A stretch of DNA of 64,000 nucleotides from Antedon mediterranea (Eukaryota > Animalia > Echinodermata). A model generated the notes under the pieces. It did not search any database. It was not told where the DNA came from and saw only the letters and a list, made by a program, of their open reading frames with translations. Made by a program: the position numbers and the translations under genes. The stretch spans positions 496,001 to 560,000 of the forward strand of contig NC_092672.1 in the NCBI RefSeq assembly GCF_964355755.1, read 5' to 3'. Shown here in pieces: positions 4,989 to 57,000 of the stretch (position 1 is the stretch's first letter; every line of letters starts with the position of its first letter).

Positions 4989-6650
4989 AATAAGAAAGCC
5001 GAAACACATAAGCTACGTCTCTTCAAACGTTACACTTAACGTTCTAAACAAATTGGAATCTGCAAATTAACACAATAGAGCAGCACATTGAGACCACTAG
5101 ACCCCACGTATTTTGTTTCCAGTGGCTATAACACACAAAAATACAAACACTTTCAAGCTAAGCATAATATTAAAGCTTTGCATGATCATTAAATCTCTCA
5201 ACACGGTGGAGGTATACATGGTATGTGGAGCGAATCGTTATACTGCAATATCCTATACCAACTAAATTAAGGCACAACGTAAATGGTTAAACGGAAAATA
5301 TTTGATTGACAATGTAATTTTACATAGATACTGTAAACATGACAATAATTGTGTATATTTTAATTACAAAACTATAGTTAAGGTGTGTAAAAACCTTAAA
5401 CATCTTGTTTTTTACCATGTTCTAATTATCATTGAAACTTTCAGTGGCTAAAAAAGTGAGATATTGATTAAATTTTTTTCATCATCGATGCAAATTATAA
5501 CTTGCGTAATAATACTTATAATAAAGCTTACTAGACTACTGAACTAAAGAGTTATTTAATTATATTCCTATTTGCCTATATTTCTTATTGAGTATTTTCT
5601 TAAGGGATATGGTCTTCCAATTTCTAACAAAGAAGAATATTGGTATTATTATATTTATACTGAATTCGTTAAAGATCGATATAACACACAATGTAGCCTT
5701 TTGTGCTCCATTAATTTATTTCTATCATGAACATATGGTTTGATGAATAAAAATAATAGGGTCTAGGGTAGTCCTTGAAAATAAAGGATCAAATCACAAG
5801 TCTGGTTTCAAATTATCATACACATGATAAGGTACATAATTCAGAAGGAATATTTTTGTTTGAGTCATCCACTTCTGTCCATGATTTGTAGAGGCGTTTA
5901 GAACTAAAGATTATACCCCTACATATGAATATACAGCCTATTGATTCTATCGTTCATTTATTCTATCCTTACAATTTATTCGTCATTACAGTGCCCATAT
6001 TGTCATCCGATTCTCGCATAGTAGACCTATATCTAGAGAAAATAAAGAGAGGTGTCATGATATAGGTGTGGTTGTTCATAACCATAATTTCTTTATTCTT
6101 TATTCTTTATTAAAGACAAACCAATTGGCAGCAAATCTGCTGAATTGCATGGTAAGGGACAATATACATTCAAAAGACAAGTAAAGTATAGTCATTATTA
6201 AACAAGGGTGTTGTTGTCCTAAGGGCATAGCAGTTGGACTAGAGGGTAGTTTTCCTAGGGGAGGGGGGGGGGGGATAGTTGTCCTAGGGGGTAGATTTCC
6301 GGGTGGGAGTTGTCCTAAGGGGGTAGTTGTCCTAGAGGGTAGTTGTCCTAGAGGGTAATTGTCCTAGAGGGGTAATTGTCCTAGAGGGGTAATTGTCCTA
6401 GGGGGGTAATTGTCCTAGAGGGGTAGTTGTCCTAGGGGGGTAGTTGTCCGGGTGGTCAGGATACCTATTTATTTTACGCATGCGCTAGTGGTGTCTCGCG
6501 TTTATTTGCATTACATTGATCGAATAGGAATTGTGGATCGAGCTTAATTCACGTCACAAAAAATGGACTTCCTAATCATCATATTATTTTCACCCTGACG
6601 TTTTACAGGTATTTAGTTGTTGTTGCCAATACTAGTTTAGTACCGTACCA

Positions 6651-7768
6651 ATGCACTGCTTTGCCATGTTTTTGATAACTTCTTACATACTTTTGTGTTC
6701 ATGTTTACTGCTGCAGTGTACACAAGGGCTTTCTTCAGACCAGGATGAACCACAAATACAAGAAATACAAGAAGTACAAGCATATGTTGGACAACAGAAC
6801 GTGAATTTGGATTGTATCGTAAGAATGCATACCAATCAGATGTTATCATGGCATTTGGTTGACCAAACATCCGATTCTAAACCGACTTCAGACACGTGGA
6901 TTAAATACCCAGGTGTGTATGCTCTTCAACACGTCGATATTGTTATAAACGGGATAAGTTACAGCCGTTATACAATGGTTATAAAAAACACGAATACCGG
7001 TATGTTAAATAAGGGATTGTATAAATGCAAAGCTACAAGAGGAAGTGATAGTGTATCTGGCGACGGTGAGACTGTCGTGATAGGCATAGCAAGCTTCGTA
7101 GTTTTTGAACTATCTCCTGAACCAAAGGTTTTATGCGGTATTGCAGAAACTAATGTCAAAGGAAATATCAATTATACAGTGCATTGGCATCTATTGGTAC
7201 TATTCCAGCGAAATTTGAGATAAGGGCTATCTACAGCAATACACCTGATTCTATCGGTAGGCCTGTTAACTCTACATTTTAATAAATGCGGATTTAATTG
7301 CGTCACAGTGGAAGTAAACATAACCCGCAATATGGATTCATTTCAGTGTGTTGTCTTTCACGATCTTCTGCCAAGCGTGATAACCAATTACACATTCTTA
7401 TTCTTATTCTTTTATTGCCAAATATAAAATACATGAAAAACACGACAAAAAACCAAAACAATAGAATCAACTGAGTGAGCTGGCATGGAACACAAAAGCG
7501 AACCTAATCACTATGACTTAAAGCCTGTGTTCCCCACTCACCCAGTTTCACAAGCAATGATTATACCATCTTAAAATATAATATCAAGATTCAAAAGCTA
7601 AGTTTAAATCACAATATAAAAAATATATATAAAAAGTATTTTAAATTATATTCATAGGCCTAACATCACGTATTAATGTAAGTTACCAGCCAACATTCCA
7701 GAATATGCCAACGACATTGGAGTATGACACAGAAGGCGATTTGAAGATACTGATTAAAATAGCAGTGG
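6651..7768 (+). pseudogene. Disrupted Ig-superfamily receptor, copy 2
   Basis: Duplicate of 2053-3170 with the same lesions. Confidence 0.85.
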
Positions 7769-10634: not shown

Positions 10635-11757
10635 GTCATTTTGAATGATTACACCAAGAAGCGTCATGTGATCAACTACTTGTAAAATGGAACCACTCAG
10701 ACTAAAAGAAGGCGATATAATATCGTCCGACTTGTCCTTAAAAAAATTGACAACCAAGATATGGCATTTGGAGGGTTTGGGTATCATGTTATCAGATCAT
10801 CTAACATGGATTGCATGGAAGGCAAATCACCTTTGCGAACGACCTCCCCAACAGTGAGGTCATCCACATATTTCCATCATCTGCAGCAATCAACACAAGC
10901 ATCATTAATAAGTACTAGGAAAAGTACAGGGCCAAGCAATGTCCCCTGTGGGACACCACAAGTCAGTGACTTGGAAGATGACAAAATCCCAGCAAACTTG
11001 GTGTTGAGAGAACGGGAAGTGAGAAAGCTGCAGACGATGGGAATTATGGACGACCTCACACCCAGTTCAATCAACTTTATAATAATAACATTATGATTAA
11101 CACGATCAAAAGCTTTAGTAAAGTCAGTGGCACATAGGTTCACATAACATTTACCCTTCTCAACATCTTTGAGTGTAGAGTCAATAAGACTAACAAGATA
11201 GTGAGTTGAGGAAGCCTTTTTCCTACTACCAAATTGACGAGAATCTAATTTACCCTTAATATCTTCAAGAATCCACTTAACAATAAAAGATTCAAATACC
11301 CTGGCAAGAATATAGGTAAGGGAAATAGGTCTAAGGTCAGAGACAGAACTAGCATTCACAGTTTTAGGAATGGGAACTGCAGTAGCCCCTTTCCAAAGGT
11401 CGGGGAAAACACGGGGGAAAACACCATCCTTCAATGCATGATTGAAGATATCCGCAACAGGCTCAGCAAGTTCAGGAGCAAAATCTCTATATAATTTAAT
11501 AGGGGGTTCATCTGGATGGCCAGCTTTGTTAGGCTTAAGATTACAAAGGGCTTTTAGGACCTGACCAGCATATATTAAAGGTGGTGGCCCAGGGGCTGGG
11601 AGATAAGCAGGCAAATCGTTTAAATTAAGAGGAGGGATGGCATTACAAACACTAGAGAAATGGGCATTAATCTCAGAGGCAGTTTCAACTTTGGACAGCC
11701 CAGGCAAGGTGAAATTAGTATTTTTAGTCTTAAGATTACATAGTTGTTTAATACCTT
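10635..11757 (-). mobile_element. CR1/L2-group LINE reverse transcriptase fragment
   Basis: ORF 10877-11707 with DLRPISLT, QFGSRK, DFTKAFDRVNH, GVPQGTLLGPVLFLVLIND; YVDD follows a stop; PSKCHIL/LLGV motifs downstream. Confidence 0.93.
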
Positions 11758-17031: not shown

Positions 17032-18107
17032 TATACAATGTTGAATACAGAACAAGATAGAGCTTTACATGGGTATGTTTTATACAATGTTAAATACAGA
17101 ACAAGATAGAGCTTAATATGGGTATGTATTATACTGTACAATGTTAAATACAGAACAAGATAGAGCTTAATATGGGTATGTATTATACTGTACAATGTTA
17201 AATACAGAACAAGATAGAGCTTTATAATGGGATATGTTTTATACAATGTTAAATACAGAACAAGTATTCTGAATAATACTGGATTTAATCATGTATTTTC
17301 AAATAACATACCTATAGATTCAGCATGGTTTAAATCTTTTAAGTGTGTTAATCGTCAAATGTATGAATTGGATTGGTTTAATAAAAGCTGTACCAAACCA
17401 TCATTATCACTTTATGTTAAATTTAAAAAAAGGCCTGAGTTAGAAAATTATCTTACTGATTTTCATGGTGCTCAATTGAAATTTAAGGCAAGGTCAAATA
17501 CTCTTCAACTTGAAAGTAGATTAAGTAAATGGGATATGAATAATACTGGTAATTGTATGTTATGTAAGTATGAACCTGAAGATTTATATCATTTTATGTT
17601 AAATTGTAAAGTACTACAAGAAGTGCGAATTTCAGAATTTGAATGCTTGGAACAAAACCTTAATGATTCTGGTCTTTCAGATCTATGGAATTCACTCCAG
17701 TTAAATAATTCAGAGGTTATCTTAATGAGTATACTTGGTGGTGATTGTTCTGTTCTCATTCCAACAATGTCGATTAATATGGTAAACAAAGCCCATGACA
17801 TTCTTGATAAATTCTGCAAATCATATCTTAAGAAAGCATGGGCCTTTAGACAACGTATAAAGTCTAACATTATCGCGCGAATGATTTTTTATATTTTTTA
17901 TTGTATGTAATTTGGTTTAGTTATCTTACTTTGTTCTTTTTCTTTTTTTTTATATCAATTCTGTTTACAGTCATCATACAGAACAAGATAGAGCTTTATA
18001 TGGGTATGTATTATACAATGTTAAATACAGAACAAGATAGAGCTTTATATGAGTATGTTTTATACAATGTTAAATACAGAACAAGATAGAGCTTTATATG
18101 AGTATGT
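17032..18107 (+). repeat. 49-54-bp tandem minisatellite split by a LINE insertion
   Basis: tacaatgttaaatacagaacaagatagagc units at 17032-17264 and 17976-18107. Confidence 0.92.
17265..17975 (+). mobile_element. 5'-truncated non-LTR retrotransposon 3' end (C-terminal CCHC-type zinc knuckle)
   Basis: KFKARSNTL..CMLCKYEPEDLYHFMLNC motif; flanked by 12-bp duplication ATACAGAACAAG (17253-17264, 17976-17987). Confidence 0.8.
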
Positions 18108-31517: not shown

Positions 31518-32831
31518 ATGAATTCAATTCGTACGATATGCCTATATTACGTTATTGTTAATTGTGCTTTCTCAGAAAACCCATCTGAATCAACGAGAAC
31601 ATTGCAAGTACTTGTTGGAGAAAAAAACATTAAATTGAACTGTTTAGTTGTCGCCGTTAATGACGTCGCTTGGTATCATGTCAATGAATACAACGATGAC
31701 ACTCATCCAACTCAACTGAGTATCAACAAAACAACAACGTTTGAACAATATTTTGAACTTGCATATTATTATGAGCTGAAAACACATAATTATTGTCTTA
31801 TTATAAAACAGATTAGCCGAAATTTGGAAGGTTTGTACATCTGTAAACTAACATATAAATCAGTTGTTTCTACTGTAGCGAAAACAAATATCGAAGTGTA
31901 TGAGTTGCCTACTGACCCCAAGATAATTTGTGGCATAGAAACAACTGATCTTGTAGAAGGTAATATCGTTACTCTAAATTACACCATCTTTATTGGTGAC
32001 GTTCCAGCAAATGTTACAATCTTTATGTTGGATACCAAAGGAGATTGTTATGTTATGTACAACCTACCAAACAGTCAACTTAGTTTGGAAATTAGTGTAA
32101 CCCGTAACATGAACAGATTTCATTTCAGAGTTTCACATAACTTCCTTCAACAAAGTCTTGTCTGTGATACTCCACAACTTAATGTTAGATATTCACCACG
32201 GTTTGAAAGCATGATGCCCAGTACTTTAGAATATGACCACGGGGATCGTCTCAACATACCGATAAATGTTACTAATTCTTATCCCGCGGCAAACATCTCT
32301 TGGAATTGTTGGAGGAACATTAACATATTATTCGATTGTAGTCAAGCTGAATTAATGTCCAGTAAAATTCCAGGCATCTATAATTTATCTATAGACACAA
32401 GTTACTGTTCGGAGTTTATCATGACGTTGACCGCAACTAATACTTTAGGTAAAGATGTCCACAATGTTAGTTTAAATTGCAGTTACATCTATAATAAGGA
32501 CCATCGAAAACCTTTGAAAGTATCAATGTGTATTCTATGTCTACTACTAGTAGTGGTGGTATGCGGCCTGGTCTATAGATACAAACAATGGATAACCGAA
32601 CGATTGAGTAATGGTAGGTCGAGCTGGAGAGACATAATAACTCGTTGCTCTTTCCGTGTGCATGTAGAGTGTCGGACTGCTGTTGATGAGAAGATGTTGT
32701 CTGTTCATGAGGAGATGTTGCCTGTTGATGGGCAGATGTTGCCTGCTGTAAAGGAGTTGTCATCTGATGGTGAGGAGATGTTGCCTGTTGATGAGAAGAT
32801 GTTGCCTGTGAGGAGATGTTGCCTGCTGTAA
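31518..32831 (+). CDS. Single-exon type I membrane protein: signal peptide, three Ig-like domains, TM, acidic repeat tail (437 aa; original frame extends to 32998)
   Basis: LNC..VAWY..EGLYICK V-type domain, YSP linker, YPAANISW..ATNTLG I-set-like domain, TM ILCLLLVVVVCGLVY then RYK; acceptor ttttcgtag just upstream. Confidence 0.88.
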   Translation: MNSIRTICLYYVIVNCAFSENPSESTRTLQVLVGEKNIKLNCLVVAVNDVAWYHVNEYNDDTHPTQLSINKTTTFEQYFELAYYYELKTHNYCLIIKQISRNLEGLYICKLTYKSVVSTVAKTNIEVYELPTDPKIICGIETTDLVEGNIVTLNYTIFIGDVPANVTIFMLDTKGDCYVMYNLPNSQLSLEISVTRNMNRFHFRVSHNFLQQSLVCDTPQLNVRYSPRFESMMPSTLEYDHGDRLNIPINVTNSYPAANISWNCWRNINILFDCSQAELMSSKIPGIYNLSIDTSYCSEFIMTLTATNTLGKDVHNVSLNCSYIYNKDHRKPLKVSMCILCLLLVVVVCGLVYRYKQWITERLSNGRSSWRDIITRCSFRVHVECRTAVDEKMLSVHEEMLPVDGQMLPAVKELSSDGEEMLPVDEKMLPVRRCCLL

Positions 32832-35323: not shown

Positions 35324-37123
35324 ATGAGGCTCAGCAAGAAATCTTCGTTTTTCTCATGCGTAATTTATTTGATATTAAAAGCTGAAGCAGCATATAACGT
35401 AACTGTAACGCCTTCAATGAATATTTTCACCGTATTTAGTACAGCAGAGCTTAGATGCGTAGTTCAAGACACGGAAGTATACGCAGTAAATTGGTTTAAA
35501 TCCAAGTATAAAATTATTGGAAATACAGATGTATTTGATCACACTTACTCTGTTGAGTGTAATTTCACAAGTAAAAGTTTCAAACTGTTAATTAATAAAG
35601 CTGCAGGATTTCATACTGGTATGTACACATGTGAAGTGTGTTTCGATTTGGAAAGAAAAACGTGTGCATTTAGCAATGTTGCAAATGTAACTGTATACCC
35701 GATTCCTGAAAGACCCAAATGCTCTGATGTTGAACACAATGTCAAAGAAGGGGAAGTCATACCTTTCGGGTGTTTTATGATTGGCGGTACACGCTTCCCA
35801 AGTATCTTGGAGGTATCCATTCTTTACAAAAACGGCACATCTCGACCAAACCTGTCGACCTCAACAGACAAAAGCATTTCACACAATATATCAATATCTT
35901 ACGATCTGAACAACGCTGTGTTGTGCTGCACTGCCAGATTTCCAATAATAAATACGACATTAAAGTGTTCAAGTGGGCCATTTAATGTCAGCTACTCTCC
36001 AAAATTTCTTTCAATGACCTACTCAATTGCTGACTCAACCAATGCACCAAGTAACGCATCTTTTACAGTGGCAATCTCATCCAATCCTGAAGCAATTGTG
36101 ACTTGGTCAAACTATGACGGACTTTTTATATACTGTAATGTATCTGAATCTGGAAATTGTAAGTTTTATGTATGTAATATCTATAATATTACAAACGGGA
36201 CAGACGTTATTATTTTAGCTGATAATCATTTTGGTAATATCAGTCAGTCGTTAAATTTGGTTTGGGATCACACTACAATTACACCTATCATAACTATAAA
36301 TACTAATTCTACAAATTATAAAATGGATTATGGTGATAATAAGTTTGCGATAACAATAACTGTTTCTGCTTCTTCAGTGGTGGTTGTGCTTGTTACGATT
36401 ATTATTATTATTGTAATAAAGAAAATCCGGAAGATGAGCCAAATCAAGAATCAAAATATTCGTCTTAATGTTATTGGCGTTTCATCCACACCCAGTCGGA
36501 CACAATCGGCAACACAACAACATATTTATGCAACAAAACTGTACAGAGTAAACAGTGCCGATAGTACAATAGGAGAAATAAATAAACAGGAAAGAAGACC
36601 AATGCAAATGGAAGGACTACCCAACATAGATCTCGGAGCACAAGACATGTTTGTAAATGAAATGTATTCTGAAAATTTAACATACAGTGAAATTGACCAT
36701 CCAATGACTGTAAATAAAGTCGGAGTGACTCGGACAATTGAAAGTGTTGATAACACCGAAGTAGTAAACAAGCATTTTACACAAACTACTGACAGTAAGA
36801 TAATACATAAACATAGGCCTAGAATTATTTGCATTCAACAATGCAAGTTTGACCATGTAATGATGAAGGAAAATCAACTAGAATGCTCACTTTGCCAAAA
36901 ACAATACCATAGACATTGTCTCAAAATAAAGTCAACCGCGACATCCCCCGAAACATGGTTGTGTCCATATTGCAATGATATTCAGGGTACTGTTAAATCT
37001 ATACTTCAGACCAGTTCGGATCAGCAGCAATTGATATCAGACATGGCTTGTAATATCGCTTCATTGACGGCAATGGTAAAAGAACAGAAAGATATGATTG
37101 CAAACCTACAAACCAGCAATTGA
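35324..37123 (+). CDS. Single-exon type I membrane protein: signal peptide, three Ig-like domains, TM, ITIM-like motif, PHD finger, coiled coil (599 aa)
   Basis: LRC..VNWF..TGMYTCE; GC..VLCCTA; YSP..SNPEAIVTW..ADNHFG; TM VVVVLVTIIIIIVI-KKIRK; LTYSEI; C4HC3 CIQQC..CSLC..YHRHC..WLCPYC at 36830-36973; acceptor caattatag at 35280. Confidence 0.92.
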   Translation: MRLSKKSSFFSCVIYLILKAEAAYNVTVTPSMNIFTVFSTAELRCVVQDTEVYAVNWFKSKYKIIGNTDVFDHTYSVECNFTSKSFKLLINKAAGFHTGMYTCEVCFDLERKTCAFSNVANVTVYPIPERPKCSDVEHNVKEGEVIPFGCFMIGGTRFPSILEVSILYKNGTSRPNLSTSTDKSISHNISISYDLNNAVLCCTARFPIINTTLKCSSGPFNVSYSPKFLSMTYSIADSTNAPSNASFTVAISSNPEAIVTWSNYDGLFIYCNVSESGNCKFYVCNIYNITNGTDVIILADNHFGNISQSLNLVWDHTTITPIITINTNSTNYKMDYGDNKFAITITVSASSVVVVLVTIIIIIVIKKIRKMSQIKNQNIRLNVIGVSSTPSRTQSATQQHIYATKLYRVNSADSTIGEINKQERRPMQMEGLPNIDLGAQDMFVNEMYSENLTYSEIDHPMTVNKVGVTRTIESVDNTEVVNKHFTQTTDSKIIHKHRPRIICIQQCKFDHVMMKENQLECSLCQKQYHRHCLKIKSTATSPETWLCPYCNDIQGTVKSILQTSSDQQQLISDMACNIASLTAMVKEQKDMIANLQTSN

Positions 37124-38881
37124 CAACATTCGAAATATGATTTTAATGCGATACAAATTAGACTGATAAATAACAATGTTAGAATATAGGGCTACCATGA
37201 AGAAGAGATTGCATCTCATCTATGCTATATAATATGCCTACGTTTTGAAAACATGAAAAAAAAAACTACTACGGTAAAATCTTATTTTAATCAATAGATG
37301 TACACCCTCAACAGACAAATAGCTGAAGAAAATATATAATTATCAGACTGCTGCTGAGACTTATGCGAGTATATTTGTAAATAATTATGTGTAAAATATA
37401 TATGCAAGTAAATCAGTAGTAAATGTAAATTTTCTTAGATTTTTTACGTGTAAAAAAATGAATACAGTGGAACATTATAAAATAATATTTAACCTATATA
37501 AACAATATTTCACAAATATTAAAAACGCCTATGCTCGGTAGCTTTAAGGTTCTGAATTAAAAAACAAAAAAAGTGAATAAAATCGTTAGACTTAGGCCTA
37601 TAGTGTAAATATATTTCCATAATTTCGTTGTCACATTAGGACAGCAAAAACGTTTTAATCCGCAACCGAGACCAGGCAATTGATGTTTTGTTTTTAATCG
37701 TTTTTTGTTTCATAGCAATTAAAAGAAATGAATATTCAAATATATTGAGTGGTTGTGATTTTCTGATTTGTGTATTAATGACATCACTAACAGCTAAAAG
37801 AAAACTTATATTGGGCCAAAATAAAAACAGAGGGCGCTATCACAGAAACTATCAGCACCTCATGTTTTATACCAATTAATAGAGGGCGGGCTATACATTG
37901 GTAAATGAAAACTATGGAACGCAAAGTGTGCCTTCAGTGAAAACGATAGTATCACAAAATCATTTAAACGGCAGTTACGTGTTTAATTTTTTTACTGACT
38001 GTGTAGAACATTTCCATTTGCGACAATCGTAAACGGTGAGCAGGTTGAGTCTTTGCGATGTATTTTGCATAATCTGCTCCTGCCCAGAATGTGTATACGT
38101 TGTTGTATTGTACATATGTTGAAATGATTTTGAACTACTGTACAATAGTTAGTACAGTACAATAGAATAGACAGGAAAACTACTATACACTACACACTTT
38201 TTGCCGTTCTTGCTATCAGTCTAAACTGCCATTGTGTCTCCGCTGTTGATTTGAAAATACAGTACAAAGAAAACCAGATTACAATATAGTACTGTCATTT
38301 AATGACGTACATATGACTTGCATTGCAGTGGTACCGATAGTGTAGAAGGTTTAAATGCAAATGTACAAGGGGTGGGTATAAACATGGAGTAAAGAATTAC
38401 TCCATGGTATAAATGGAAAAACTGTTTTTTGCAAACAATACAAAATAATATACAGAATACTTTCCACAAGTACTTTATTAGCTGTAATGCCAGTATACCT
38501 CTAAAATATTTACATCTCTACTGTCAATATAGATAAACATAAATTTATAAATAAGAAAATTGGGTTAAAATTATCCCCAAAATAAATCGTATTACTGTAT
38601 CTAACTGTAGATATCCAAAATGTGACCAATGTTTAAACAATTTTCAGAAACCCTTAATCCCATTAAATATGTACAATGATTTCAAAGACAAATATCTATA
38701 CATCTTCAAGCAAAGGGAAGAGATTTGAAAATGAGTCTTCCCATAAATTGTCACAGAAAGGACTAGCATCATTGCTTAGTGGTGAATTTGGAGCGTCACT
38801 GAAAGCTGAATCACCAGAGTCACTCATAGTAGAATACGATGGAGATGGTGATAGCGGATCAGTACTGTTAAGACCCAGCAA
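37032..38881. repeat. ~1.85-kb diverged direct duplication, copy 1 (copy 2 40593-42448)
   Basis: Collinear similarity from tgatatcagacatg to agacccagcaa with scattered substitutions and indels. Confidence 0.95.
38696..38881 (-). pseudogene. XBP1: Orphan duplicate of XBP1s C-terminus
   Basis: LGLNSTDPLSP..LWEDSFSNLFPLLEDV, same as 42263-42448 except last residue; cut by satellite. Confidence 0.9.
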
Positions 38882-40260
38882 AGTTTATCCTATTCTTTAT
38901 AACTGTTCTCAAGTATACCAAAATGACTATAGTTGAGAACAGTGTTAAACTGGATCGTACATTAATGTCTTTTGTTGTATATTGTTAAGTTTATCCTATT
39001 CTATCACTGTTCTCAAGTATACCAAAATAACTATAGTTGAGAACAGTGTTAAACTGGATCGTACATTAATGTTTTTTGTTGTATATTGTTAAGTTTATCC
39101 TATTCTTTATCACTGTTCTCAAGTATACCAAAATGACTATATTTGAGAACAGAGTTAAACTGGATCGTACATTAATGTTTTTTGTTGTATATTGTTAAGT
39201 TTATCCTATTCTTTATCACTGTTCTCAAGTATACCAAAATAACTATAGTTGAGAACAGTGTTAAACTGGATCGTACATTAATGTTTTTTGTTGTATATTT
39301 TTAAGTTTATCCTATTCTTTATCACTGTGCTAAAGTATACCAAAATGACTATAGTTGAGAACAGTGTTAAACTGGATCGTACATTAATGTTTTTTGTTGT
39401 ATATTTTTAAGTTTATCCTATTCTTTATCACTGTGCTCAAGTATACCAAAATGACTATAGTTGAGAACAGTGGTAAACTGGATCGTACATTAATGTTATT
39501 TGTTTTATATTATTAAGTTTATCCTATTCTTTATCACTGTGCTCAAGTATACCAAAATGACTATAGTTGAGAACAGTGTTAAACGGGATCGTACATTAAT
39601 GTTTTTTGTTGTATATTGTTAAGTTTATCCTATTCTTTATCACTGTTCTCAAGTATACCAAAATGACTATAGTTGAGAACAGTGTTAAACTGAATCGTAC
39701 ATTAATGTTTTTTGTTGTATATTGCTAAGTTTATCCTATTCTTTATCACTGTGCTCAAGTATACCAAAATGACTATAGTTGAGAACAGTGTTAAATGGGA
39801 TCGTACATTAATGTTTTTTGTTGTATATTGTTAAGTTTATCCTATTCTTTATAACTGTTCTCAAGTATACCAAAATGACTATAGTTGAGAACAGTGTTAA
39901 ACTGGATCGTACATTAATGTCTTTTGTTGTATATTGTTAAGTTTATCCTATTCTATCACTGTGCTCAAGTATACCAAAATTACTATAGTTGAGAACAGTG
40001 TTAAACGGGATCGTACATTGTTGTTGTATATTGTTAAGTTTATCCTATTCTTTATCACTGTGCTCAAGTATACCAAAATGACTATAGTTGAGAACAGTGT
40101 TAAACGGGATCGTACATTAATGTTATTTGTTGTATATTGTTAAGTTTATCCTATTCTTTATCAATGTGCTCAAGTATACCAAAATGACTATAGTTGAGAA
40201 CAGTGTTAAACTACATCGTACATTAATGTTATTTGTTGTATATTGTTAAGTGTATTCTTT
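38881..40260. repeat. ~106-bp satellite, ~13 copies, each with an internal 17-bp inverted repeat
   Basis: Units start 38881, 38987, 39091, 39197...; CACTGTTCTCAAGTATA-N10-TATAGTTGAGAACAGTG. Confidence 0.95.
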
Positions 40261-40592
40261 ATTCTTATTAATTGTACTAAATTATTAAAAGAAACAGTAG
40301 TAAGCATAACATTTCCCCACTCCTACATTAACATGGTAGGACATTGTAATGGTCGCAGGTGGCTCAACTTTATTACTGCAATGGGATGGACATGGTCCTA
40401 CTACCACCTTACCATCCAATAGGATTCCAGTAAATTTCCTTTACTACCAATCATAATTCAGTAATTAAATGACCCCTTAAGTTAACAAGGAAATCAGCCT
40501 ATCCCATTATACCGGTAGGCTTCGTCGTTACAGGCGTACTGCGGTAATAGTTGAGAATTTTCAACTAGCCAATTTGGTATATTTTATATACC

Positions 40593-42448
40593 TGATCTCA
40601 GACATGACTTGTAATATCGCTTCATTGACGGCAATGGTAAAAGAACAGAAAGATTTGATTGCAGACCTACAAACCAGCAATGGACAACATGATATGATTT
40701 TAATGCGGTACAAATTAGACTGATAAATAACAATGTTAGAATATAGGCCTACCATGAAAAGGAGAATGCATCTTATCGATGATATAGATTTTGAAAAAAC
40801 ATGAAAAAAAAAATACTTCTGTAACATCATATTTTAATCAATAGATGTAAACCCTCAGACAAATAGTTAAGAAAATATATATTTATCATACTCTGCTGCT
40901 GAGAACTTTCTATCCGAGTAAATTTGTAAATTATGTGTAAAATATATGCAAGTAAATCAGTAGTAAATGTAAATTTTCTTAGATTTTTTACGTGTAATGA
41001 ATACAGTGGAACATTATAAAATAATATTAACCTATATAAACAATATTTCACAAATATTAAAAAGGCCTATGCTCGGTAGCTTTAAGGCTCTGAATTAAAA
41101 AACAAAAAAGTGAATAAAATCGTTACGACTTATAGTGTAAATATATTTCCATAATTTCGTTGTCACATTAGGACAGCAAAAACGTTTTAATCCGCAACCG
41201 AGACCAGGCAATTGATGTTTTGTTTTTAATCGTTTTTTGTTTCATAGCAATTAAAAGAAAAGAATATTCAAATATATTGAGTGGTTGTGATTTTCTGATT
41301 TGTGAGTAATACTGGACTAAGATAATGACAGGCCGAAACATCAATTTTAGTTGATTTTGTATTAATGACACATCACTAATATAACAGCTAAAAGAAAACT
41401 TATATTGGGCCAAAATAAAAACAGAGGGCGCTATCACAGAAACTATCAGCGCCTCATGTTTTATACCAATTAATAGAGGGCGGGCTATACATTGGTAAAT
41501 GAAAACTATGGAACGCAAAGTGTGCCTTCAGTGAAAACGATAGTATCACAAAATCATTTAAACGGCAGTTACGTGTTTAATTTTGTTACTGACTGTGTAG
41601 AACATTTCCATTTGCGACAATCGTAAACGGTGAGCAGGTTGAGTTTTTGCGATGTATTTTGCATAAACTGCTCCTGGCCAGAATGTGTATACGTTGTATT
41701 GTACGTATGTTGAAATAATTTTGAACTACTATACAATAGTTAGTACAGAACAATAGAATAGACAGGAAAACTACTGTACACTACACACTCTTTGCTGATG
41801 AGGAAATGTTCTTGCAATCAGTATAAACTGCCATTGTGTCTCCGCTGTTGATTTGAAAATACAGTACAAAGAAAACCAGATTACAATATAGTACTGTCAT
41901 TTAATGACGTACATATGACTTGCATTGCAGCGGTACCGATAGTGTAGAAGGTTTAAATGCAAATGTACAAGGGGTATAAATGGAAAAACTGTTTGTTGCA
42001 AACAATACAAAATTACATACAGAATACTTTCCACAAGTACTTTATTAGCTGTAATGCCAGTATACCTCTAAAATATTTACATCTCTACTGTCAATATAGA
42101 TAAACATAAATTTATAAATAAGAAAATTGGGTTAAAATTATCCCAAAAATAAATCGTATTACTGTATCTAACTGTAGATATCCAAAATGTGACCAATGTT
42201 TAAACAATTTTCAGAAACCCTTAATCCCATTAAATATGTACAATGATTTCAAAGACAAATATCTATAAATCTTCAAGCAAAGGGAAGAGATTTGAAAATG
42301 AGTCTTCCCATAAATTGTCACAGAAAGGACTAGCATCATTGCTTAGTGGTGAATTTGGAGCGTCACTGAAAGCTGAATCACCAGAGTCACTCATAGTAGA
42401 ATACGATGGAGATGGTGATAGCGGATCAGTACTGTTAAGACCCAGCAA
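40593..42448. repeat. Duplication copy 2: decayed 3' end of the Ig-PHD gene plus the functional XBP1 3' end
   Basis: DMTCNIASLTAMVKEQKDLIADLQTSN at ~40601-40681; rest collinear with copy 1. Confidence 0.95.
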
Positions 42449-44451
42449 GTCCGACAGCTCGTCAGTAAACCCATCGTCCACTTGATCACAATTCAGGATA
42501 TCACTAATGTCAATTTTGTCTTCATTAGTAGTAATTTCAGCAACAGGTTCAACAACCATTGGAATGTCATAAGGTACAGAGAATGTTTGTTCATCTTTGT
42601 CGTCGGTGACTAACATGAGAGAGGCAACTGGCGGCTTGGAGTACTCGTGGTCGGTAAGGATCACTTCTTTGATGGATTCCACGTCTTTTGATGAGCTCCC
42701 CACCAGATCACTAGAGGATTCTGTGTTGGAACGGTCTTTTGTTGTTGTTCCTTTGGTCTCGAAGCTATTAGTGTTTGTTGAGATGGCATGCTCGGAATTG
42801 AGCTGCTCGATAAGTTGAAGAAGGACATCAGACTGGTGAAAAAAAAAATTGAAAATTGTACAATATTGCAGCATACAAAAAACTTATTGGTCTAATGCTC
42901 TGTCTACACTATCAAACTTAAGTGTGATATGCCCAAATATGGTGGTAATAATATGACATCATCGTGTCCATATATGGGCACATCACATTTTGTTGTCACA
43001 TAAAGTTTGATAGTGTAGATAGAGCTCAATAATGTACCCCGTATGAAATTGTTTATATAAATAAAATAAAGATCGATATCTATGGTTAGAACACTGAACC
43101 CAACAGCTAATAATTACCAACAATAATCAGTACTCACCTCCACATCAGAATGGTCGTTAACATTGTTGAAAGCTGTTGGATGTGCACCTGCGGCAGAGGG
43201 GCTATGAGTACGGCAGACTCAGGGGATCCAACTTCTTTCTTTACAACCACACTCGTGGAGTCTAAAACCTAAAATAAAATCAAGAAAATCTGTTAGAAAC
43301 AAAGTCAACAAACATACATAGGCAAGGCTAGTTTTGATTTAACTTTATTTGCCACAAAAAGGACAAAAACCATGAGCTATGCTAGTTAGGTGTATGTATG
43401 TATCATCATTTTAACTGTTGGTCTCTAGTTCAATGAGGGCAATTCATTCCACTTAAACCCTCAAACAACCAGCTACAGACTTGAGATACAACCACCTTTC
43501 ATGCATTTATTTACCTTTTCCTTATCCATATTGTTTGAGCTCAGGAATAGCTTCAGACAGGCTTTCAGTTCTCTGTTTTCATTTTCCAAGGCATCATTTT
43601 GTGACCGAAGGAGTTTGTTTTCTTTTGTAAGCTTAGTGTTTTCATCTTTGATGGCATTCACCTCGCCTTCTATACCGTTTACGTAATCTTTTTTCCGATC
43701 ACGCGCTGTCTGTGCAGCTACTCTATTCTTTAACTTCCTGTAATAATAAAATCATAAATATCTACATTTAGCCTGTTGTTGAAAAATGATTAGCTTAGCC
43801 GCTAGGTGAATAAATATTTGATTAAAAAAATTTATAACGGCATTTATATATGGAAAAAATGGTTTATTTTACAGTTTCTGAGCTGAAAAAAAACAATATT
43901 TCCTTTTCTTTAACTTTCATTTTAGTGAAACATGGAATAATGGAAGCTACTCTACAGTCTACATTATTTTGTAGGCTATGCCTAAATAAAGTAAAATTAT
44001 CAAAAAGAGGCCTTTCCGGTTCCAACTACAAACAACGTCATCCAGTGATTAAATTACCATATGGTAGATATTGTTTGTTGGTTTAGGGCTAGGCCCGAGA
44101 ACACCAGTTCCGGTTTTTATAGAAATTAATTTTGGCTATGAGCCTATGGTTTTTTATACAATTAAAATAAGTTTTCAGATTCTACGATACATACCTTCTA
44201 GCCATTTTTTGTTCAGGCGTAAGATGTGTTAATCGCTGCCTTTTTCTCGGCATTCCTTGTTTTGTGTATTGAGTATCAAATTCTGTACTATCAATACTTG
44301 GAGTGAATGCCAATCGCTGGGCCAGTTCAATCGATCTCTGATCCATCTCCTCGTTACTTCGTTTCTGTGTTGATGTCGGGCTAGACGAAACTAACATTTT
44401 AATCGGTGTCTGATTCTGGGAAATCTGGGCAAGTAGTATTCTAGAGGCCAT
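42263..44451 (-). CDS. XBP1: X-box binding protein 1 (spliced form ~386 aa, unspliced ~260 aa)
   Basis: Exons 44451-44195, 43737-43515, 43268-43138, 42832-42263, all GT-AG and in phase. RKRQRLTHLTPEQK..RRKLKNRVAAQTARDRKK bZIP; SDVLLQL and WEDSFSNLFP motifs. Confidence 0.97.
42897..43025. mobile_element. Small MITE in XBP1 intron 3 (partial copies ~55465, ~62200)
   Basis: gctctgtctacactatcaaactt ... aagtttgatagtgtagatagagc. Confidence 0.8.
43194..43213 (-). other. XBP1: IRE1-cleaved unconventional 20-nt intron
   Basis: tgagt CTG|CCGT actca and cct CTG|CCGC agg stem-loops; removal joins ESA-AGA and opens the XBP1s frame. Confidence 0.93.
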
Positions 44452-44621: not shown

Positions 44622-45385
44622 CCAATACAACTAGCTTCTATAATACTGGTGGCGCTTTTCGAGTGTGTGAAATATATATCTGTTTGCATTTGTTTAGGTA
44701 AGCTATAATTACGTCATTGTTTTCCAAAAATAGTAGTGTATTGGAGGAATAATAGACCGAAAACGTGGAAGTCTGATGCAACGGGGTGTGATATTGTTGA
44801 TTGTTGTGTACGACCCGTCTGTTGCCAAAATATTGCGTAAGCAATCGAATAATAAAAACATCACAATCACGCTAGAATTAACGACTAGAATAACGATAAT
44901 GTTGTGTGAGACTGGTAATTGCCACGTCTCTGAGATTATATCTATGTGATTGAATTTTAAATTGAACGAGAATAAATACGTTAGTGACAGCTAAAATGAA
45001 ATTAAAGGCCTATAAATTTTTGATTTGTTCTATATATGTGGCGGGCGGGACCGCACCTGGGGAATTACTCGCTACTTTTAGCTGAAATTTCCAATTGGTG
45101 GTTTATACAAGATAATTAAAGCAGTGATGTGATTCTCTTATCTATCTAGTTTTAATCACGCATTTCACTTTTATAAAACGTCTTCTGACAGAGTGCATAG
45201 CCTAAGTAAAGTGGTACCACAATTAGAATTATTTTGGGATCATTGCTTTTTAATTTTATAAATACACTCTGCCCTGATAGTCAATGGTAGTGTAATAATA
45301 CGATGATAACACAACAATTATTTGGTGGTTCTCACACTTCTGTATGCCTACTTCAAAATGAACTTCAAACCAATTTTAATGTTAA

Positions 45386-46011
45386 AGCCCCATTCCCTAC
45401 GTTTTTTAGATCTAATTTAAGATCACAAACTATATTTAATGTAAAAATAATACTATATGGTCCTATTGCGATAACTTTTTTCATCTTTAAACGGTTAAAA
45501 ATGTGAAAAATAAGTCGATTCTAATCATTATAGCGGCCCGCTATAAATCCCAAAATGCATTGCGCGCGGATTGATATTTTTGTTTTTCACCTGTAATTCG
45601 CCCACTTTTCGATCGATCGTGAGGCCAAAACAAATGGAAGACTCCTAACTTTTCAGCGAAAATACCGGGTTTTCCCCAATTTGTATCAACGGAGTCTGGC
45701 AAAAATAGAAAGACAATTAATGCAGCAACTATACAACGTCAGGCTAGGTATATAGCTCGCGTACGATGTTCGTACGTTACCGATGTTTACCAGCTAGGCC
45801 TACAAAACTAAGCCTAGCTAGGCTAGGCCTAAGACCGTCCACGAGAGGTCGATCGCCGCGAGCTACTTAGGTAGTGCATTGTTTCTCACTTTTTATCATA
45901 ATTTATCATAAAACGTACATTTAAGACAAGAAATGACATGGTTTAATGTTTTTAAAGTGATATATATGTATTATTTTCCAAAAAACGTCCAAAATTGCAG
46001 GGAAGGGGTCT
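45386..46011 (+). mobile_element. Kolobok-like MITE, copy 1
   Basis: TTAA TSD, AG..CT ends, imperfect TIR AGCCCCATTCCC/GGGAAGGGGTCT; near-identical inverted copy at 56277-56887. Confidence 0.85.
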
Positions 46012-46595
46012 TTAATGTTTGTTACTTGTTTATAAAAAAATAAACTAAACTAATTTTATGGTTTTAGGAACTTCCCACTTTACTTCCCAAATTGTCCAAC
46101 ATTTCCCTTGATATACGAAAAAAATGACATTAAACAGGTTAAATTAAATATCTTCTGTAAATTTTGAAATTGCACATTCATGGGCTTAATTTACATATTA
46201 TTGAAAATACAAATATCGGCAAAAATATCAAATAAAATTGGTCGACGTTATTCTCAGTGCACAAGAAGTAGGCCTAAATCAAATAACAATAATGGAGCAA
46301 AATGGGAGACAGGTACAAAAGGCACAGGATCATTATTTAAGACATGAATAATCTTCCAAACAATATAACAACAACATTCAATGAATCCCTGCAACATTTT
46401 TTTAAATCATAACTGTAATGTTGAATTTTTCTTTCGCCACTTTTGCCTTTTGGACCTTTTAATTGTTAATTATATTTTCTATTGCATTATTTTGTCTTGT
46501 AGCTTTTTATTTTGTTTTTTGTTATAGGTCTAGTGTAAAGAATATAATCTGTGATCCATTTTAAAAAATCAGTACTGTAATACTAAGTGTATCTA

Positions 46596-46704: not shown

Positions 46705-47115
46705 AGACAGAAAAAAAGTGCATAACTCGTAGTGGTCCATGCGACGATCGACGACGCATCATGACATGAAATAAGCGTCGGTCGTAAACACCTCACAACC
46801 ATAACTACGTATACTGACAGTTGGATTTCCTGTGCAGCAGAACACAATAATAAACGCCATCCTTGTTTGACTTCGACTAAACTAAGTAACATAAATATTG
46901 CAATCAGATCTGTGTATGCCTATACACAGTACTACACCCGAGTTTTGACTAAACATAATTCACATTATAATAACCCGCCTATATAATGGTATGTGCCGTC
47001 TGTCCAATGATCAGATTTCCTATCTCAACGGTCACAAGACTTCAGTTATCCTAATAAATAGAGGTTCGTTTTTTTAGCTGACCACACCTCCATTACTCTG
47101 CCAGCTAGGTACACA

Positions 47116-48063
47116 ATGTGTGATGTAAATGTACGATCTGAATGGCATTCTCTAGCCAAACGAGTCAATGTGTTGGAATCGTATATGAGTTATTATGATT
47201 CCAATCCAGATAAAGTTGACGGAAAGTTCTGTGTAGTTTTTGTTCACGGAAATCCGACATCATCATACCTCTGGCGCAACGTCATTCCGTTCGTGGAATC
47301 AAAATACCGATGTTTTGCTCCTGATCTGATCGGCATGGGGATGTCTGCGAAGTTACCTGGAGGCAGTCAATACACATTCATGGACGTATTTCGGTATTTG
47401 TCCGAGTGGTTCACGGCAGCTTGTGTTCCGCAGAAAGTTGTTCTTGTTTGCCATGATTGGGGATCAGCTTTGAGCTTCAATTGGGCTTACAAGAATCAGG
47501 ACAGGGTCGTTGGAATCGTTCATATGGAAAGTCTTGTTTCACCGATTCCAAGTTGGGAGTTTTGGGAACAAAACTTTAAAGACCCGACACTGAAAGACGC
47601 ACCGGAGGGCACTCCTGGAGTAATCGACGTCTTCAAATCATTTCATACTTCGGTTGGCGAGAAAGCAATACTGGATGACAATGTATTCATCGAGAAGCTT
47701 CTAGGAGAAGGAATAATTCGAGATTTATCTAACGAAGAGTTGGATATTTATCGAAAACCTTTCCTGGAGCCAGGTGAGTCTCGTCGACCTATGCACACCC
47801 TGGCATGCTCTCTTCCGATTGTAACACTGGGTGGAGAAGTCGTCCAAATCGTGAGTGCTTACAGTAAATGGCTATCAGAAAGTTCTGATGTGCCCAAGTT
47901 GTTTTTGAACGCCGAACCTGGTTTCTTTTCGCCAGTGATCAAAGCCATTACAAAGGATTGGCCTAACCACCGAGTCGGAACTTGTACTGGTTTGCATTTT
48001 GTTCAGGAAGATTCTCCAGATATTATTGGGAAGCAAGTGGTGGAGTTCTTGGATGAGTTGTAA
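47116..48063 (+). CDS. Renilla luciferase-like / haloalkane dehalogenase (alpha/beta hydrolase), intronless, 315 aa
   Basis: HGNPTSSYLWRNV, APDLIGMG, HDWG nucleophile, HMES acid, GLHFVQEDSP base; PGESRRP, PKLFLNAEPGFFS. Confidence 0.96.
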   Translation: MCDVNVRSEWHSLAKRVNVLESYMSYYDSNPDKVDGKFCVVFVHGNPTSSYLWRNVIPFVESKYRCFAPDLIGMGMSAKLPGGSQYTFMDVFRYLSEWFTAACVPQKVVLVCHDWGSALSFNWAYKNQDRVVGIVHMESLVSPIPSWEFWEQNFKDPTLKDAPEGTPGVIDVFKSFHTSVGEKAILDDNVFIEKLLGEGIIRDLSNEELDIYRKPFLEPGESRRPMHTLACSLPIVTLGGEVVQIVSAYSKWLSESSDVPKLFLNAEPGFFSPVIKAITKDWPNHRVGTCTGLHFVQEDSPDIIGKQVVEFLDEL

Positions 48064-54097: not shown

Positions 54098-57000
54098 TTA
54101 ATCATTGTGCTTTGTACCGTAACCATTGACAGCACTGAATTCACTTTGTTTGGAAGTAGTTACCATCTGATCTGATTTTAATCTCGATTTCACCATCCTC
54201 ATACCCGCCTTCATTATCAAATAAAACCATCCTAACTGAATAAGTAAAAAGAATAAGTTTCCTAAATTACAATGCCATGGAATTGATGTGAACGCTTCTA
54301 GAAAACTAATCTGTTTGTACGCTGAATAAGAGTAATACATAAAAGGAAAAATTAAAAGACGAAAAACTATGAACGTTGAAAGCAGCAAAATGTTGACTAA
54401 TGTGTATAATCTTGTGTTCTCCTTTTGAATCTGAAATTTAAATATGAAATTCAGTTTGAATTTAGATAAATAAGTTTTTGGTACTAATAATCTAAGTACA
54501 GTATGACTCAATTACAAATGGTGTATTCAATTTGAATCTGTTGTACTCTACAGAAAATCTGTTCTTTTACTACTGTAGTAAGTTAAACACATATAAAGGT
54601 CAATGTACAGACAAGTGTTAACAGTGATTGGTAAATGGTAAGTGGAAAACAGGCTGTATTCAGGTGTGGAGTGAGGATGTCCTAATATCCTCACAATGAA
54701 TTAACATGACGTAGTTTGGTTGTCTATCATCACAAATCAAAAACTCCCTAGTATTTCTAAAAATTCTTATAAAACATAAATTTAAATTGTAATTAATAAA
54801 AATTACCTTTTTCATTAGTGCTCTTGCATTAAAAAATGGTGTAGTTGTCTCGGATAACAAGTAGCATGCTAAAAAGAAGTCTCCAAGTCCTTTTCTAAAA
54901 TACTGAAATACAGGAAATAAGAATGGGTTCTTAGTAAGTGCTTACAGTTGAGTTAATTAATATAGTTTGGCACAGTGTTTGTCTAAAGTCAAAGTAAAAT
55001 ATATTCATCCTTAAAAGAAAATTGGATTGAGATATAAATAAACATATAACATTCAATTTCTTTCTGGCTGTTTTATTTTATCGTTTTGATTTAGCTTTTT
55101 GCTTATTTTATTTTATACTTACTAATATAACTGGAGGACCACAAAGAACAATGAGAATATGGTGGTAAACAAATATCCCTCTGGCATTCACAAATTTTCT
55201 CACTCCTGTCCAGTATGGTAATCTTAAAATTTCCAATTTAGAATGTCGATACACGATAAACATTGTATAAATATCGTAGGTGAAGTAAGCTGTGTTTATG
55301 ACACTGTATGGCTCAACCAACCACCATCTGTTGAACAATTAATTTAAATTAACATATTAAATTAAATAAACATAACATATATAAATATAAAAATAACCTA
55401 TTATTATATTATTACCTAGTGATTGTAGTCTAACATTCTCAATAAATTATGCTTTTGCATTAAGCTCTGTCTACACTATCAGTATCAAACTAGTTTGACA
55501 ACAAAAGTGTGATGTGCCCAAATATGGTAGGGATATGTCCAGATATGGTAGTGATATGACATCTGCCAATCTGTGTTCCTGGAAATTTAATTTGATATAT
55601 AATACAGTTACAGTATATGGCACTAATAGAAGGTGTGGCCAGATCAACGGATGTTCTGTCTTCTTGGTAACAAAAAACTAGAATGACCTACCTGTCATGA
55701 ATGACATCTTGTTTGCAAAATACAACAGCAGTCAAACCAATGATAGATGCAAGTATGCCTTGCAGGATGCATACTAGCCTAAATAAAATTAAAACAACAC
55801 CGTGTTAAAACAATCAATTTAATACAGTCAGTAGTTTCAATGATTGTCAGACGATCGGGTCTATTTCAATACGATTGTATGTGGTAACCCATTTGAATGG
55901 TTGAGTGTCACAGTCATGCAAAATAATAAGATGGCAAAATAAAAAAAATAGGAGGCCTCTCAGACCAGACTTCCCAACTCTATCGATATTTTGTGTCATC
56001 ATCCGCTACAACATGGCTAAAAAATACAATTTCTCAAGATTTTTGGAATAAACATAAAATATATCCAATTTAGAGCCTACTTTCTATGACCTCTAGGCTG
56101 TAAATGGATAAGAATTAAGGGGTTTATTAAAAGGATAGGCTTTATTCGGTCCACAATATTAAAAAGATCGTTTAAATTCATGAATTGATTAAATAATATA
56201 GTGAAATATTGAGTTGGTAACTGATTTTCCTGCCTTTGATACATCATTATTAATATACCATCATGTTTACTATTAAAGACCCCTTCCCTGCAATTTTGGA
56301 CGTTTTTTGGAAAATAATACATATATATCACTTTAAAAACATTAAACCATGTCATTCCTTGTCTTAAATGTACGTTTTATGGTAAATTATGATAAAAAGT
56401 GAGAAACAATGCACTACCTAAGTAGCTCGCGGCGATCGACCTCTCGTGGACGGTCTTAGGCTTAGTTTTTTAGGCCTAGCTGGTAAACATCGGTAACGTA
56501 CGAACATCGTACGCTAGCTATATACCTAGCCTGACGTTGTATAGTTGCTGCATTAATTGTCTTTCTATTTTTGCCAGACTCCGTTGATACAAATTGGGGA
56601 AAACCCGATATTTTCGCTGAAAAGTTAGGAGTTTTCCATTTGCTTTGGCCTCACGATCGATCGAAAAGTGGGCGAATTACAGGTGAAAAACAAAAATATC
56701 AATCCGCGCGCAATGCATTTTGGGATTTATAGCGGGCCGCTATAATGATTAAAATCGACTTATTTTTCACATTTTTAACCGTTTAAAGACGAAAAAAGTT
56801 ATCGCAATAGGACCATATAGTATTATTTTTAAATTAAATATAGTTTGTGATCTTAAATTAGATCTAAAAAACGTAGGGAATGGGGCTTTAATATTATACT
56901 ATAGATTCCAACATATGTCGTATTCGATTTAGACTTTCACCGTTGGCGTTGAGTACAGATTTTCCATTGAGTACTTCTTTAAACGGAGTATTTTGAGCGT

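Follow-up and report, generated by a model that had tools for sequence, protein, structure and literature searches.

In esterase-type ORF1 proteins of non-LTR retroelements (ZfL2-1, CR1, RTEX and Penelope-like), a coiled coil precedes an SGNH esterase (PMC3905857). A PHD finger is found in another described group, the ORF1 proteins of CR1/L2 elements, where it lies in the N-terminal half, is followed by a coiled coil in the subgroup CR1_3, and is paired with an RRM or Tnp22 (PMC4120745). Pieces of a LINE ORF1 that include a coiled coil are also known on host proteins, namely in the L1 ORF1p-host fusions Lyosin (MYL4), L1-RFX5, NUP42-L1 and USP4-L1 and in L1TD1 (PMC12129022). According to the same source, such fusions are rare, a vertebrate RefSeq screen having found four genes; they are alternative exons of vertebrate genes that carry the L1 coiled coil and RRM, and in two of them the L1 piece is the C-terminus. 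The words 'transmembrane' and 'PHD' are absent from its main text. Since ORF1-host fusions are already on record there, the process itself is not new.

Among receptors, the ITIM-bearing members of the Ig superfamily (CD22/Siglec, nectin and fasciclin-3 types, and the allorecognition receptors of Botryllus, PMC12582321) combine an Ig ectodomain, one transmembrane helix and an ITIM-pattern tyrosine and are multicopy with many amino-acid differences, all of which recur in the receptor described below. We know of no ITIM-bearing Ig receptor with a terminal PHD finger. In the MARCH or RING-CH membrane E3 ligases, a membrane protein likewise bears a C4HC3 zinc finger; in contrast to these, the finger studied here points to a PHD in the fold search, lies C-terminal to a single transmembrane helix and shares its protein with an Ig ectodomain.

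Here, we analysed a 64,000-nucleotide stretch of the genome of the feather star Antedon mediterranea (the window) and describe a gene at 35324..37123 on its forward strand. Our preferred explanation, to which we give about even chances, is a predicted Ig-type surface receptor whose PHD finger and predicted coiled coil probably came, in frame, from the ORF1 of a retrotransposon and would serve to cluster receptors and dock partner proteins. Unlike in the L1 fusions, the ORF1 piece lies in the same exon as its host, is the PHD and coiled coil of an esterase-type ORF1, belongs to an invertebrate membrane receptor and is multicopy. Neither the literature nor the Atlas yielded an Ig-TM-PHD receptor or a receptor-captured ORF1 (with subscription papers and bioRxiv supplements outside the scope), in agreement with the first-pass annotation, which knew of no characterised Ig receptor with a PHD finger, and the layout was absent among 54 relatives of the tail drawn from 1.84 billion representatives. 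The case thus differs from the recorded fusions in its donor, its host, its form (the same exon) and its fate (amplified).

A single-exon Ig-type receptor frame

The frame runs from an ATG at 35324 to a TGA at 37121-37123, has an in-frame stop immediately upstream of the ATG and encodes a predicted type I membrane protein of 599 amino acids, so that the uninterrupted exon noted at first pass was recovered at the same coordinates. The chance of 599 codons without a stop is ~1e-20 at the composition of the window, and most of the ORF is spanned by contigs of the same organism that have no gaps. One of them (36175-36907) joins the membrane helix to the finger with 0 differences; thus, the join is not an assembly error, and an assembly chimera was ruled out.

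The N-terminus (aa 1-23; 35324..35392) is signal-peptide-like, with a basic start, a hydrophobic core, an A-x-A end and a hydropathy peak of 2.36 in an 11-residue window; the signal peptide proposed earlier is upheld by eye and hydropathy, without a predictor. Of the three Ig-like domains proposed with it, the first, a V/I-set domain with C45-C103 and W57 (35393..35698), is matched by Pfam I-set over aa 39-114 with E 1.5e-6, over the cut-off. Domains 2 and 3 (aa 126-316; 35699..36271), which contain many N-glycosylation sequons, are only probable: Pfam gave zero matches on this region, and the assignment derives from motifs, from 23% identity to a neighbouring receptor and from weak look-alikes in the Atlas. 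These Ig-superfamily likenesses have Atlas scores of 0.81-0.83, which is the level of a lead, and a PHD family occurs in none of the 10 clusters shown.

An S/T-rich stalk leads to the single predicted transmembrane helix, which was placed by hydropathy at aa 343-365 (36350..36418; values up to 3.1, peak at aa 347-365) in line with the first reading and is directly followed by KKIRK. A 130-residue linker separates this helix from the finger. Among the tyrosine motifs named at first pass, LTYSEI (aa 452-457; 36677..36694) fits the ITIM pattern, while IYATKL and MYSENL are of the form YxxxL. The protein thus has an Ig ectodomain, a single transmembrane helix and one (I/L/V/S)xYxx(I/L/V) match in its tail, as ITIM-bearing Ig receptors do, and a single such match in a tail of this kind is not rare by chance (an estimated ~1 in 5). 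An ITAM reading of the tail was dropped, as a motif scan found no ITAM.

A predicted PHD finger and coiled coil at the C-terminus

A complete C4HC3 finger had been reported at 36830-36973, and its zinc ligands (C503, C507, C521, C524, H529, C532, C547 and C550) run exactly there. These eight ligands and W545 are invariant in 30/30 rows of the tail alignment; their spacing is PHD-like, with the Trp two residues ahead of the seventh ligand. Over aa 502-550, Pfam returned PHD (E 2.5e-3) and PHD_4 (E 2.8e-4), both under their cut-offs: the PHD score was 18.2 bits against a curated cut-off of 24, and most donor-type relatives likewise fall under it. An AlphaFold model of the tail, computed with 29 relatives as alignment, reached a mean pLDDT of 86, as compared to only 52 when the tail was folded as a single sequence. 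Foldseek searches with the model gave no match at E<=0.001; among the 40 rows shown, 33 carry PHD in their title (probability 0.85-1.00, best E 0.017), most of the remainder are UHRF1, Pygo or ZMYND8 chains, and none is a MARCH or RING-CH ligase. A wider structure search (VIA) of the tail returned generic helices only, at Z ~6.3. As modelled, the finger is a PHD fold.

From the finger to the stop codon (36974..37120), the tail is predicted to form a coiled-coil helix. The heptad-like character remarked on earlier is borne out by the best register, in which 69% of a/d positions are hydrophobic, and by AlphaFold, which draws one amphipathic helix of 50 residues across aa 548-598.

PHD fingers that read H3K4me3 have an aromatic-cage Trp before the His ligand. 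In the receptor this position is a Gln (QYH), from which the absence of an H3K4me3 cage had been proposed. The Trp is indeed missing, and it is equally missing in the SGNH-bearing relatives of the alignment; the QYH is thus inherited from the donor family and is not an adaptation of the receptor.

A very probable retroelement origin of the tail

Homology to retroelement ORF1-type proteins covers aa 500-598 (36821..37117), and the similarity to 25 such proteins is limited to this segment. A phmmer search of 1.84 billion representatives, with the C-terminal 110 residues as query, found 54 matches at E<=1e-3. Pfam scans of these relatives (33 at E<=0.01, 21 at E<=1e-5) found Lipase_GDSL_2 in 26/54, including 10 of the 11 matches with E<=1e-10, and an Ig family in 0/54. 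The best match, at 57/97 identical residues (59%) over aa 500-596, is XP_071963312.1, an uncharacterised protein of Antedon mediterranea itself with the layout PHD-coiled coil-SGNH esterase; the next ORF1-type rows have 21-38% identity to the receptor tail, and another relative belongs to the crinoid Anneissia japonica. The first 58 residues of the Antedon protein have no match in the receptor linker, and its model may itself be a damaged relative of the receptor locus. In a tree of the tail, the receptor is grouped with this protein at a support of 81/94 only, with a long-branch row inside the group.

What kind of protein is the donor? Its family has a Cys ribbon, a PHD, a coiled coil, an SGNH esterase and usually two CCHC knuckles. 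A profile of 23 family members matched best the ORF1 esterase of ZfL2-1 (4C1B, E 3.9e-15), followed by a cellular SGNH protein (E 1.9e-10); the knuckles match HIV NC, Lin28 and copia Gag. The order of coiled coil and SGNH esterase is that of esterase-type ORF1 proteins, and the transposon-specific His and Ser of the latter (PMC3905857) align to columns invariant in 23/23 donor-family rows. Compared to the esterase-type ORF1 proteins described in PMC3905857, the donor family adds the N-terminal Cys ribbon, the PHD and the two knuckles, and whereas the CR1/L2 proteins of PMC4120745 pair their PHD with an RRM or Tnp22, the donor family pairs it with an esterase; the receptor has kept the PHD and coiled coil only. 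The combination of Cys ribbon, PHD and CCHC knuckles is not in Table 1 of PMC4120745, and the PHD-esterase-CCHC layout was not found described in the literature. The donor-type family is widespread and mostly unnamed (proteins P0003-P0053; loci L001:614-2065 and L002:147-1760).

The genomic surroundings were followed in 27 metagenome loci, comprising 2 full-length relatives, 5 loci in which an esterase ORF precedes one of APE type, and a further 20 that were short, unrelated or uninformative. In the five esterase-only loci, the ORF that directly follows has APE-type motifs (4/4 of those scanned match a Pfam endonuclease), and RVT_1 follows in 2 of them. The contigs of both full-length PHD-SGNH-CCHC loci end <=180 nt past the stop, before any ORF2 could appear, and no reverse transcriptase linked to the donor family was retrieved, so that CR1/L2 is only one possible clade of the donor. 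Based on the closest relatives of the tail being PHD-coiled coil-SGNH proteins, often with CCHC, on 4C1B as top match, on the knuckles and on the conserved His and Ser, we consider it very probable from homology that the tail derives from a retroelement ORF1. The capture of a LINE ORF1 PHD and coiled coil put forward at first pass is thereby supported, with the donor specified as esterase-type (PHD-CC-SGNH-CCHC x2) and not RRM type.

Beside the receptor gene, the 64-kb window contains no remnant of the esterase, the knuckles or a linked reverse transcriptase, and a recent insertion of a full LINE was ruled out because none of its six frames holds an SGNH or CCHC remnant. A scan of viral contigs gave no relative of the tail. 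Word-index searches for homologues at E<=1e-3 returned none for the full length, none among shorter proteins with aa 300-599 and none among longer proteins with the tail; these searches also missed the 59% phmmer match and are weak evidence of absence. Atlas leads for the tail are unnamed short PHD proteins (0.91-0.92) and proteins with PHD and Baculo_FP (0.76-0.77). At a great distance from the receptor, and with no link to it, LINE ORF2 fragments lie at 10877-11755 (-) and 17218-17910 (+) (RVT_1 E 3.6e-13, zf-RVT E 5e-7).

Copies and transcripts

Eight sequencing runs from two organisms and three studies contained the stretch in whole or in part, and contigs from four of them were aligned. 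Each aligned run holds several divergent copies of the receptor, and the in-frame fusion recurs in related organisms and paralogues, as contigs from organisms A and B, together with an RNA contig, bridge the transmembrane or ITIM region to the PHD. Judged from these sequences, two related organisms have the Ig-PHD fusion as a small gene family. Summed depth was ~10-14x the single-copy level over the PHD and ~8-9x at the Ig peaks, compared to ~40,000x over a high-copy repeat in a nearby intron; summed depth is not a copy number, and the contrast is no more than a rough one.

That run X8 is RNA follows from three introns of a nearby XBP1-like gene, all with GT-AG ends, which are skipped in X8 alone, and from the zero cover of the DNA upstream; in the intron bins that lie outside the repeat, the depth is 0-7. 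X8 is also not from the window's own population, as it has 17 of its 22 listed exon variants of the XBP1-like gene in common with organism B. One of its contigs (2770 nt, depth 32.7) represents a paralogue that is colinear from Ig2 to PHD with no intron in the aligned pieces. It matches, in order, 35570-35775, 36173-36272, 36669-36766 and 36825-36974, which cover Ig2, the end of Ig3, the ITIM stretch and the PHD, and between the matched blocks it has other letters of similar length, which is not excision. Its offsets (+18, +21, +18 and -3, then a -42 event that equals two heptads and is also found in X1, X5 and X6) amount to five length changes that are all multiples of three (chance 0.004). 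The PHD and ITIM stretches are 82-84% identical to the window copy (84% for the ITIM-containing stretch at 36669-36766), while no alignment at 80% was obtained for the transmembrane and juxtamembrane stretch. A transcript spliced or ending before 36830 had been named as the observation that would speak against a PHD-bearing receptor; in this one transcribed paralogue, the PHD is not spliced out. The transcription of the domain together with the host part is seen for a paralogue: none of the 8 aligned X8 contigs is >=95% identical to the window copy, and no RNA run was listed with the exact copy.

Another contig of X8, 853 nt long and at depth 155, contains the helix together with one half of the PHD and continues into the same 3' flank; six deletions are listed for it there, of 11, 1, 17, 2, 1 and 2 nt. 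C-terminal ends vary among copies. A loose contig end at 37111, read by hand in frame, continues for ten more codons, of which 6/10 match the next residues of the Antedon protein; thus, some copies retain more of the donor helix than the window copy, and the contigs with the longer helix could be receptor copies or elements.

Locally, 40593..42448 (+) is an 89% tandem duplicate of 37032-38881 that holds the last 30 codons of the receptor gene and its 3' flank only. The duplicated 1.85 kb include the 3' end of the receptor gene as well as that of the XBP1-like gene, and the two copies are separated by a 106-bp minisatellite array (38881-40285). Upstream, a single-exon Ig-type receptor at 31518..32831 (+) is a distant paralogue with 23% colinear identity, the same ectodomain layout and no PHD; its tail runs into a 21-bp minisatellite.

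Possible selection on the PHD segment

Is the tail maintained? Of eight distinct net length changes in the coding sequence, 7 keep the frame (insertions of +4 at 36014 and +2 at 36016 are not assignable to contigs and were left out of this count), as compared to 0/6 listed deletions in the 3' flank. An orthologue contig from organism B preserves the net length of 36001-36907 with 8 gap letters that sum to zero. The 28 listed coding substitutions comprise 7 synonymous and 21 non-synonymous changes against a neutral expectation of 23% synonymous (P=0.48), and zero stops among them has a chance probability of P=0.25; they are a non-random subset, being those listed, with 297 further substitutions and 38 indels beyond the listing, and the events are not independent. 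Eighteen of the 28 lie in the ectodomain and only 2 in the PHD and coiled coil, and diversifying selection on the ectodomain would give the same substitution picture. With 27-54 neutral substitutions in the tail, the absence of a stop has P 0.12-0.014. Stops in the PHD of orthologues had been set out at first pass as a counter-sign: one haplotype of organism B has a net +8 in the PHD, which is a frameshift (records 14 and 23), so that broken copies exist. Because frame-keeping indels stand against neutral-looking listed substitutions and a frameshifted copy, purifying selection on the PHD is only suggested by these sequences.

Discussion

We propose that an intronless Ig receptor family came first, of the kind represented by the PHD-less neighbour at 31518-32831 with the same ectodomain layout. 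A retroelement would then have inserted in sense into the tail of one such receptor; only ~100 of its codons would have stayed in frame, the remainder being deleted or left behind a stop, and duplication of the fusion would have followed. The coiled coil of ZfL2-1 ORF1 dimerises (PMC3905857). If the captured helix kept this ORF1 self-association, it could bring receptor tails together, and tails paired in this way might present their single ITIMs in pairs to SH2 phosphatases, with the cage-less PHD capping the coiled coil and offering a putative docking surface. That a feather-star receptor family was built by grafting an ORF1 self-assembly module onto an Ig-ITIM receptor, and that this module is selected and does clustering or signalling at the plasma membrane, is a proposal that we think could equally well hold or fail.

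The module could also be a tolerated passenger, i.e. an ORF1 piece that came to lie in frame at the end of the tail and has since been translated without function and copied as the family expanded. The neutral-looking synonymous share of the listed substitutions, the frameshifted PHD in organism B, the variable C-terminal ends and the adjoining PHD-less relative would all fit such a history, which we nevertheless regard as rather unlikely: the eight zinc ligands and the Trp have survived a divergence of ~40% in amino acids from the nearest donor-type protein (part of which arose in the element), indels in the coding sequence mostly keep the frame, against none of those listed in the 3' flank, no stop is seen under the 27-54 neutral substitutions considered for the tail (P 0.12-0.014), and the PHD of the transcribed paralogue has kept its sequence better than the transmembrane region has. 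The same conservation pattern weighs on the idea of a nuclear messenger, in which ectodomain shedding and gamma-secretase would free the tail, KKIRK would direct it to the nucleus and the PHD would bind chromatin. The fold does resemble chromatin-reader PHDs, the S/T-rich stalk, V/I-rich helix and basic cluster have the right order, and LINE PHDs may target chromatin, for which no functional study was found (PMC4120745). However, paralogues are least conserved in the transmembrane and juxtamembrane region, the tail has no DNA-binding or activation domain, and, with no cage Trp and with basic instead of acidic residues ahead of the first Cys, it departs from the signatures of H3K4me3 and of H3K4me0 readers alike; we find a released messenger quite improbable. 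Since type I membrane proteins in general have V/I-rich helices with basic residues behind them, the signature cited at first pass is no specific evidence for the gamma-secretase release envisaged there.

Could the tail instead act on its parent element, its PHD and coiled coil pairing with the ORF1 protein so as to hold particles at the membrane or to report them via the ITIM? Self-association is predicted for just the piece that was captured, Antedon has a donor-type protein 59% identical to it, and the domesticated L1TD1 associates with L1 ORF1p (PMC11925450), but a variable ectodomain would be needless for such a trap and the binding is purely putative, which makes it highly doubtful. Barely credible, finally, is a host origin of the finger, either as a MARCH-type RING-CH ubiquitin ligase or as a PHD shuffled from a chromatin protein. 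It would account for a C4HC3 pattern beside a membrane helix and for the 21 of the 54 tail matches that are not of the PHD-coiled coil type, mostly multi-PHD host-type proteins; these matches, however, are weaker (best E 2.4e-9 vs 5.1e-27) and mostly confined to the finger, the Trp two residues before the seventh ligand is PHD-like, and the Foldseek rows shown name PHD in 33 of 40 cases and MARCH or RING-CH in none, with none at E<=0.001.

A captured ORF1 module at work in the receptor tail would mean that a PHD finger acts at the plasma membrane and that a LINE-type ORF1 has been domesticated as the tail of a receptor. Retroelements would thereby be shown to be a source of intracellular modules for immune-type receptors of invertebrates, and there would be a handle on what the PHD of a retroelement ORF1 does, a point on which no functional study was found as of 2014 (PMC4120745).

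Further features of the window

Between the receptor and the end of the window, a bZIP gene at 42263-44451 (-) matches bZIP_1 with E 8e-11, and its four exons are confirmed by spliced contigs. We take it to be XBP1-like, and its exon 3 presumably contains, near 43180-43220, an apparent IRE1-type short intron motif, which is unspliced in the contig examined. A short palindromic intron repeat at 42890-43026 is very abundant and MITE-like, with a summed depth of ~1.9 million vs ~40 for single-copy sequence in run X1. An intronless frame of 333 aa at 47062-48063 (+) is a candidate luciferase-like gene, whose closest matches are ancestral haloalkane dehalogenase / Renilla luciferase constructs (E 2e-104) and Renilla luciferase (E 7e-76).

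Near the start of the window, 2038-2625 and 6636-7223 (+) are identical frames with a signal peptide and an Ig domain, in a near-identical tandem duplication of ~4.6-kb spacing that represents either a recent duplicate or an uncollapsed haplotype. An inverted pair of ~630 bp at 45377-46016 and 56272-56896, 98% identical and ~10 kb apart, encloses the luciferase-like gene together with BTB and TLC-domain genes.
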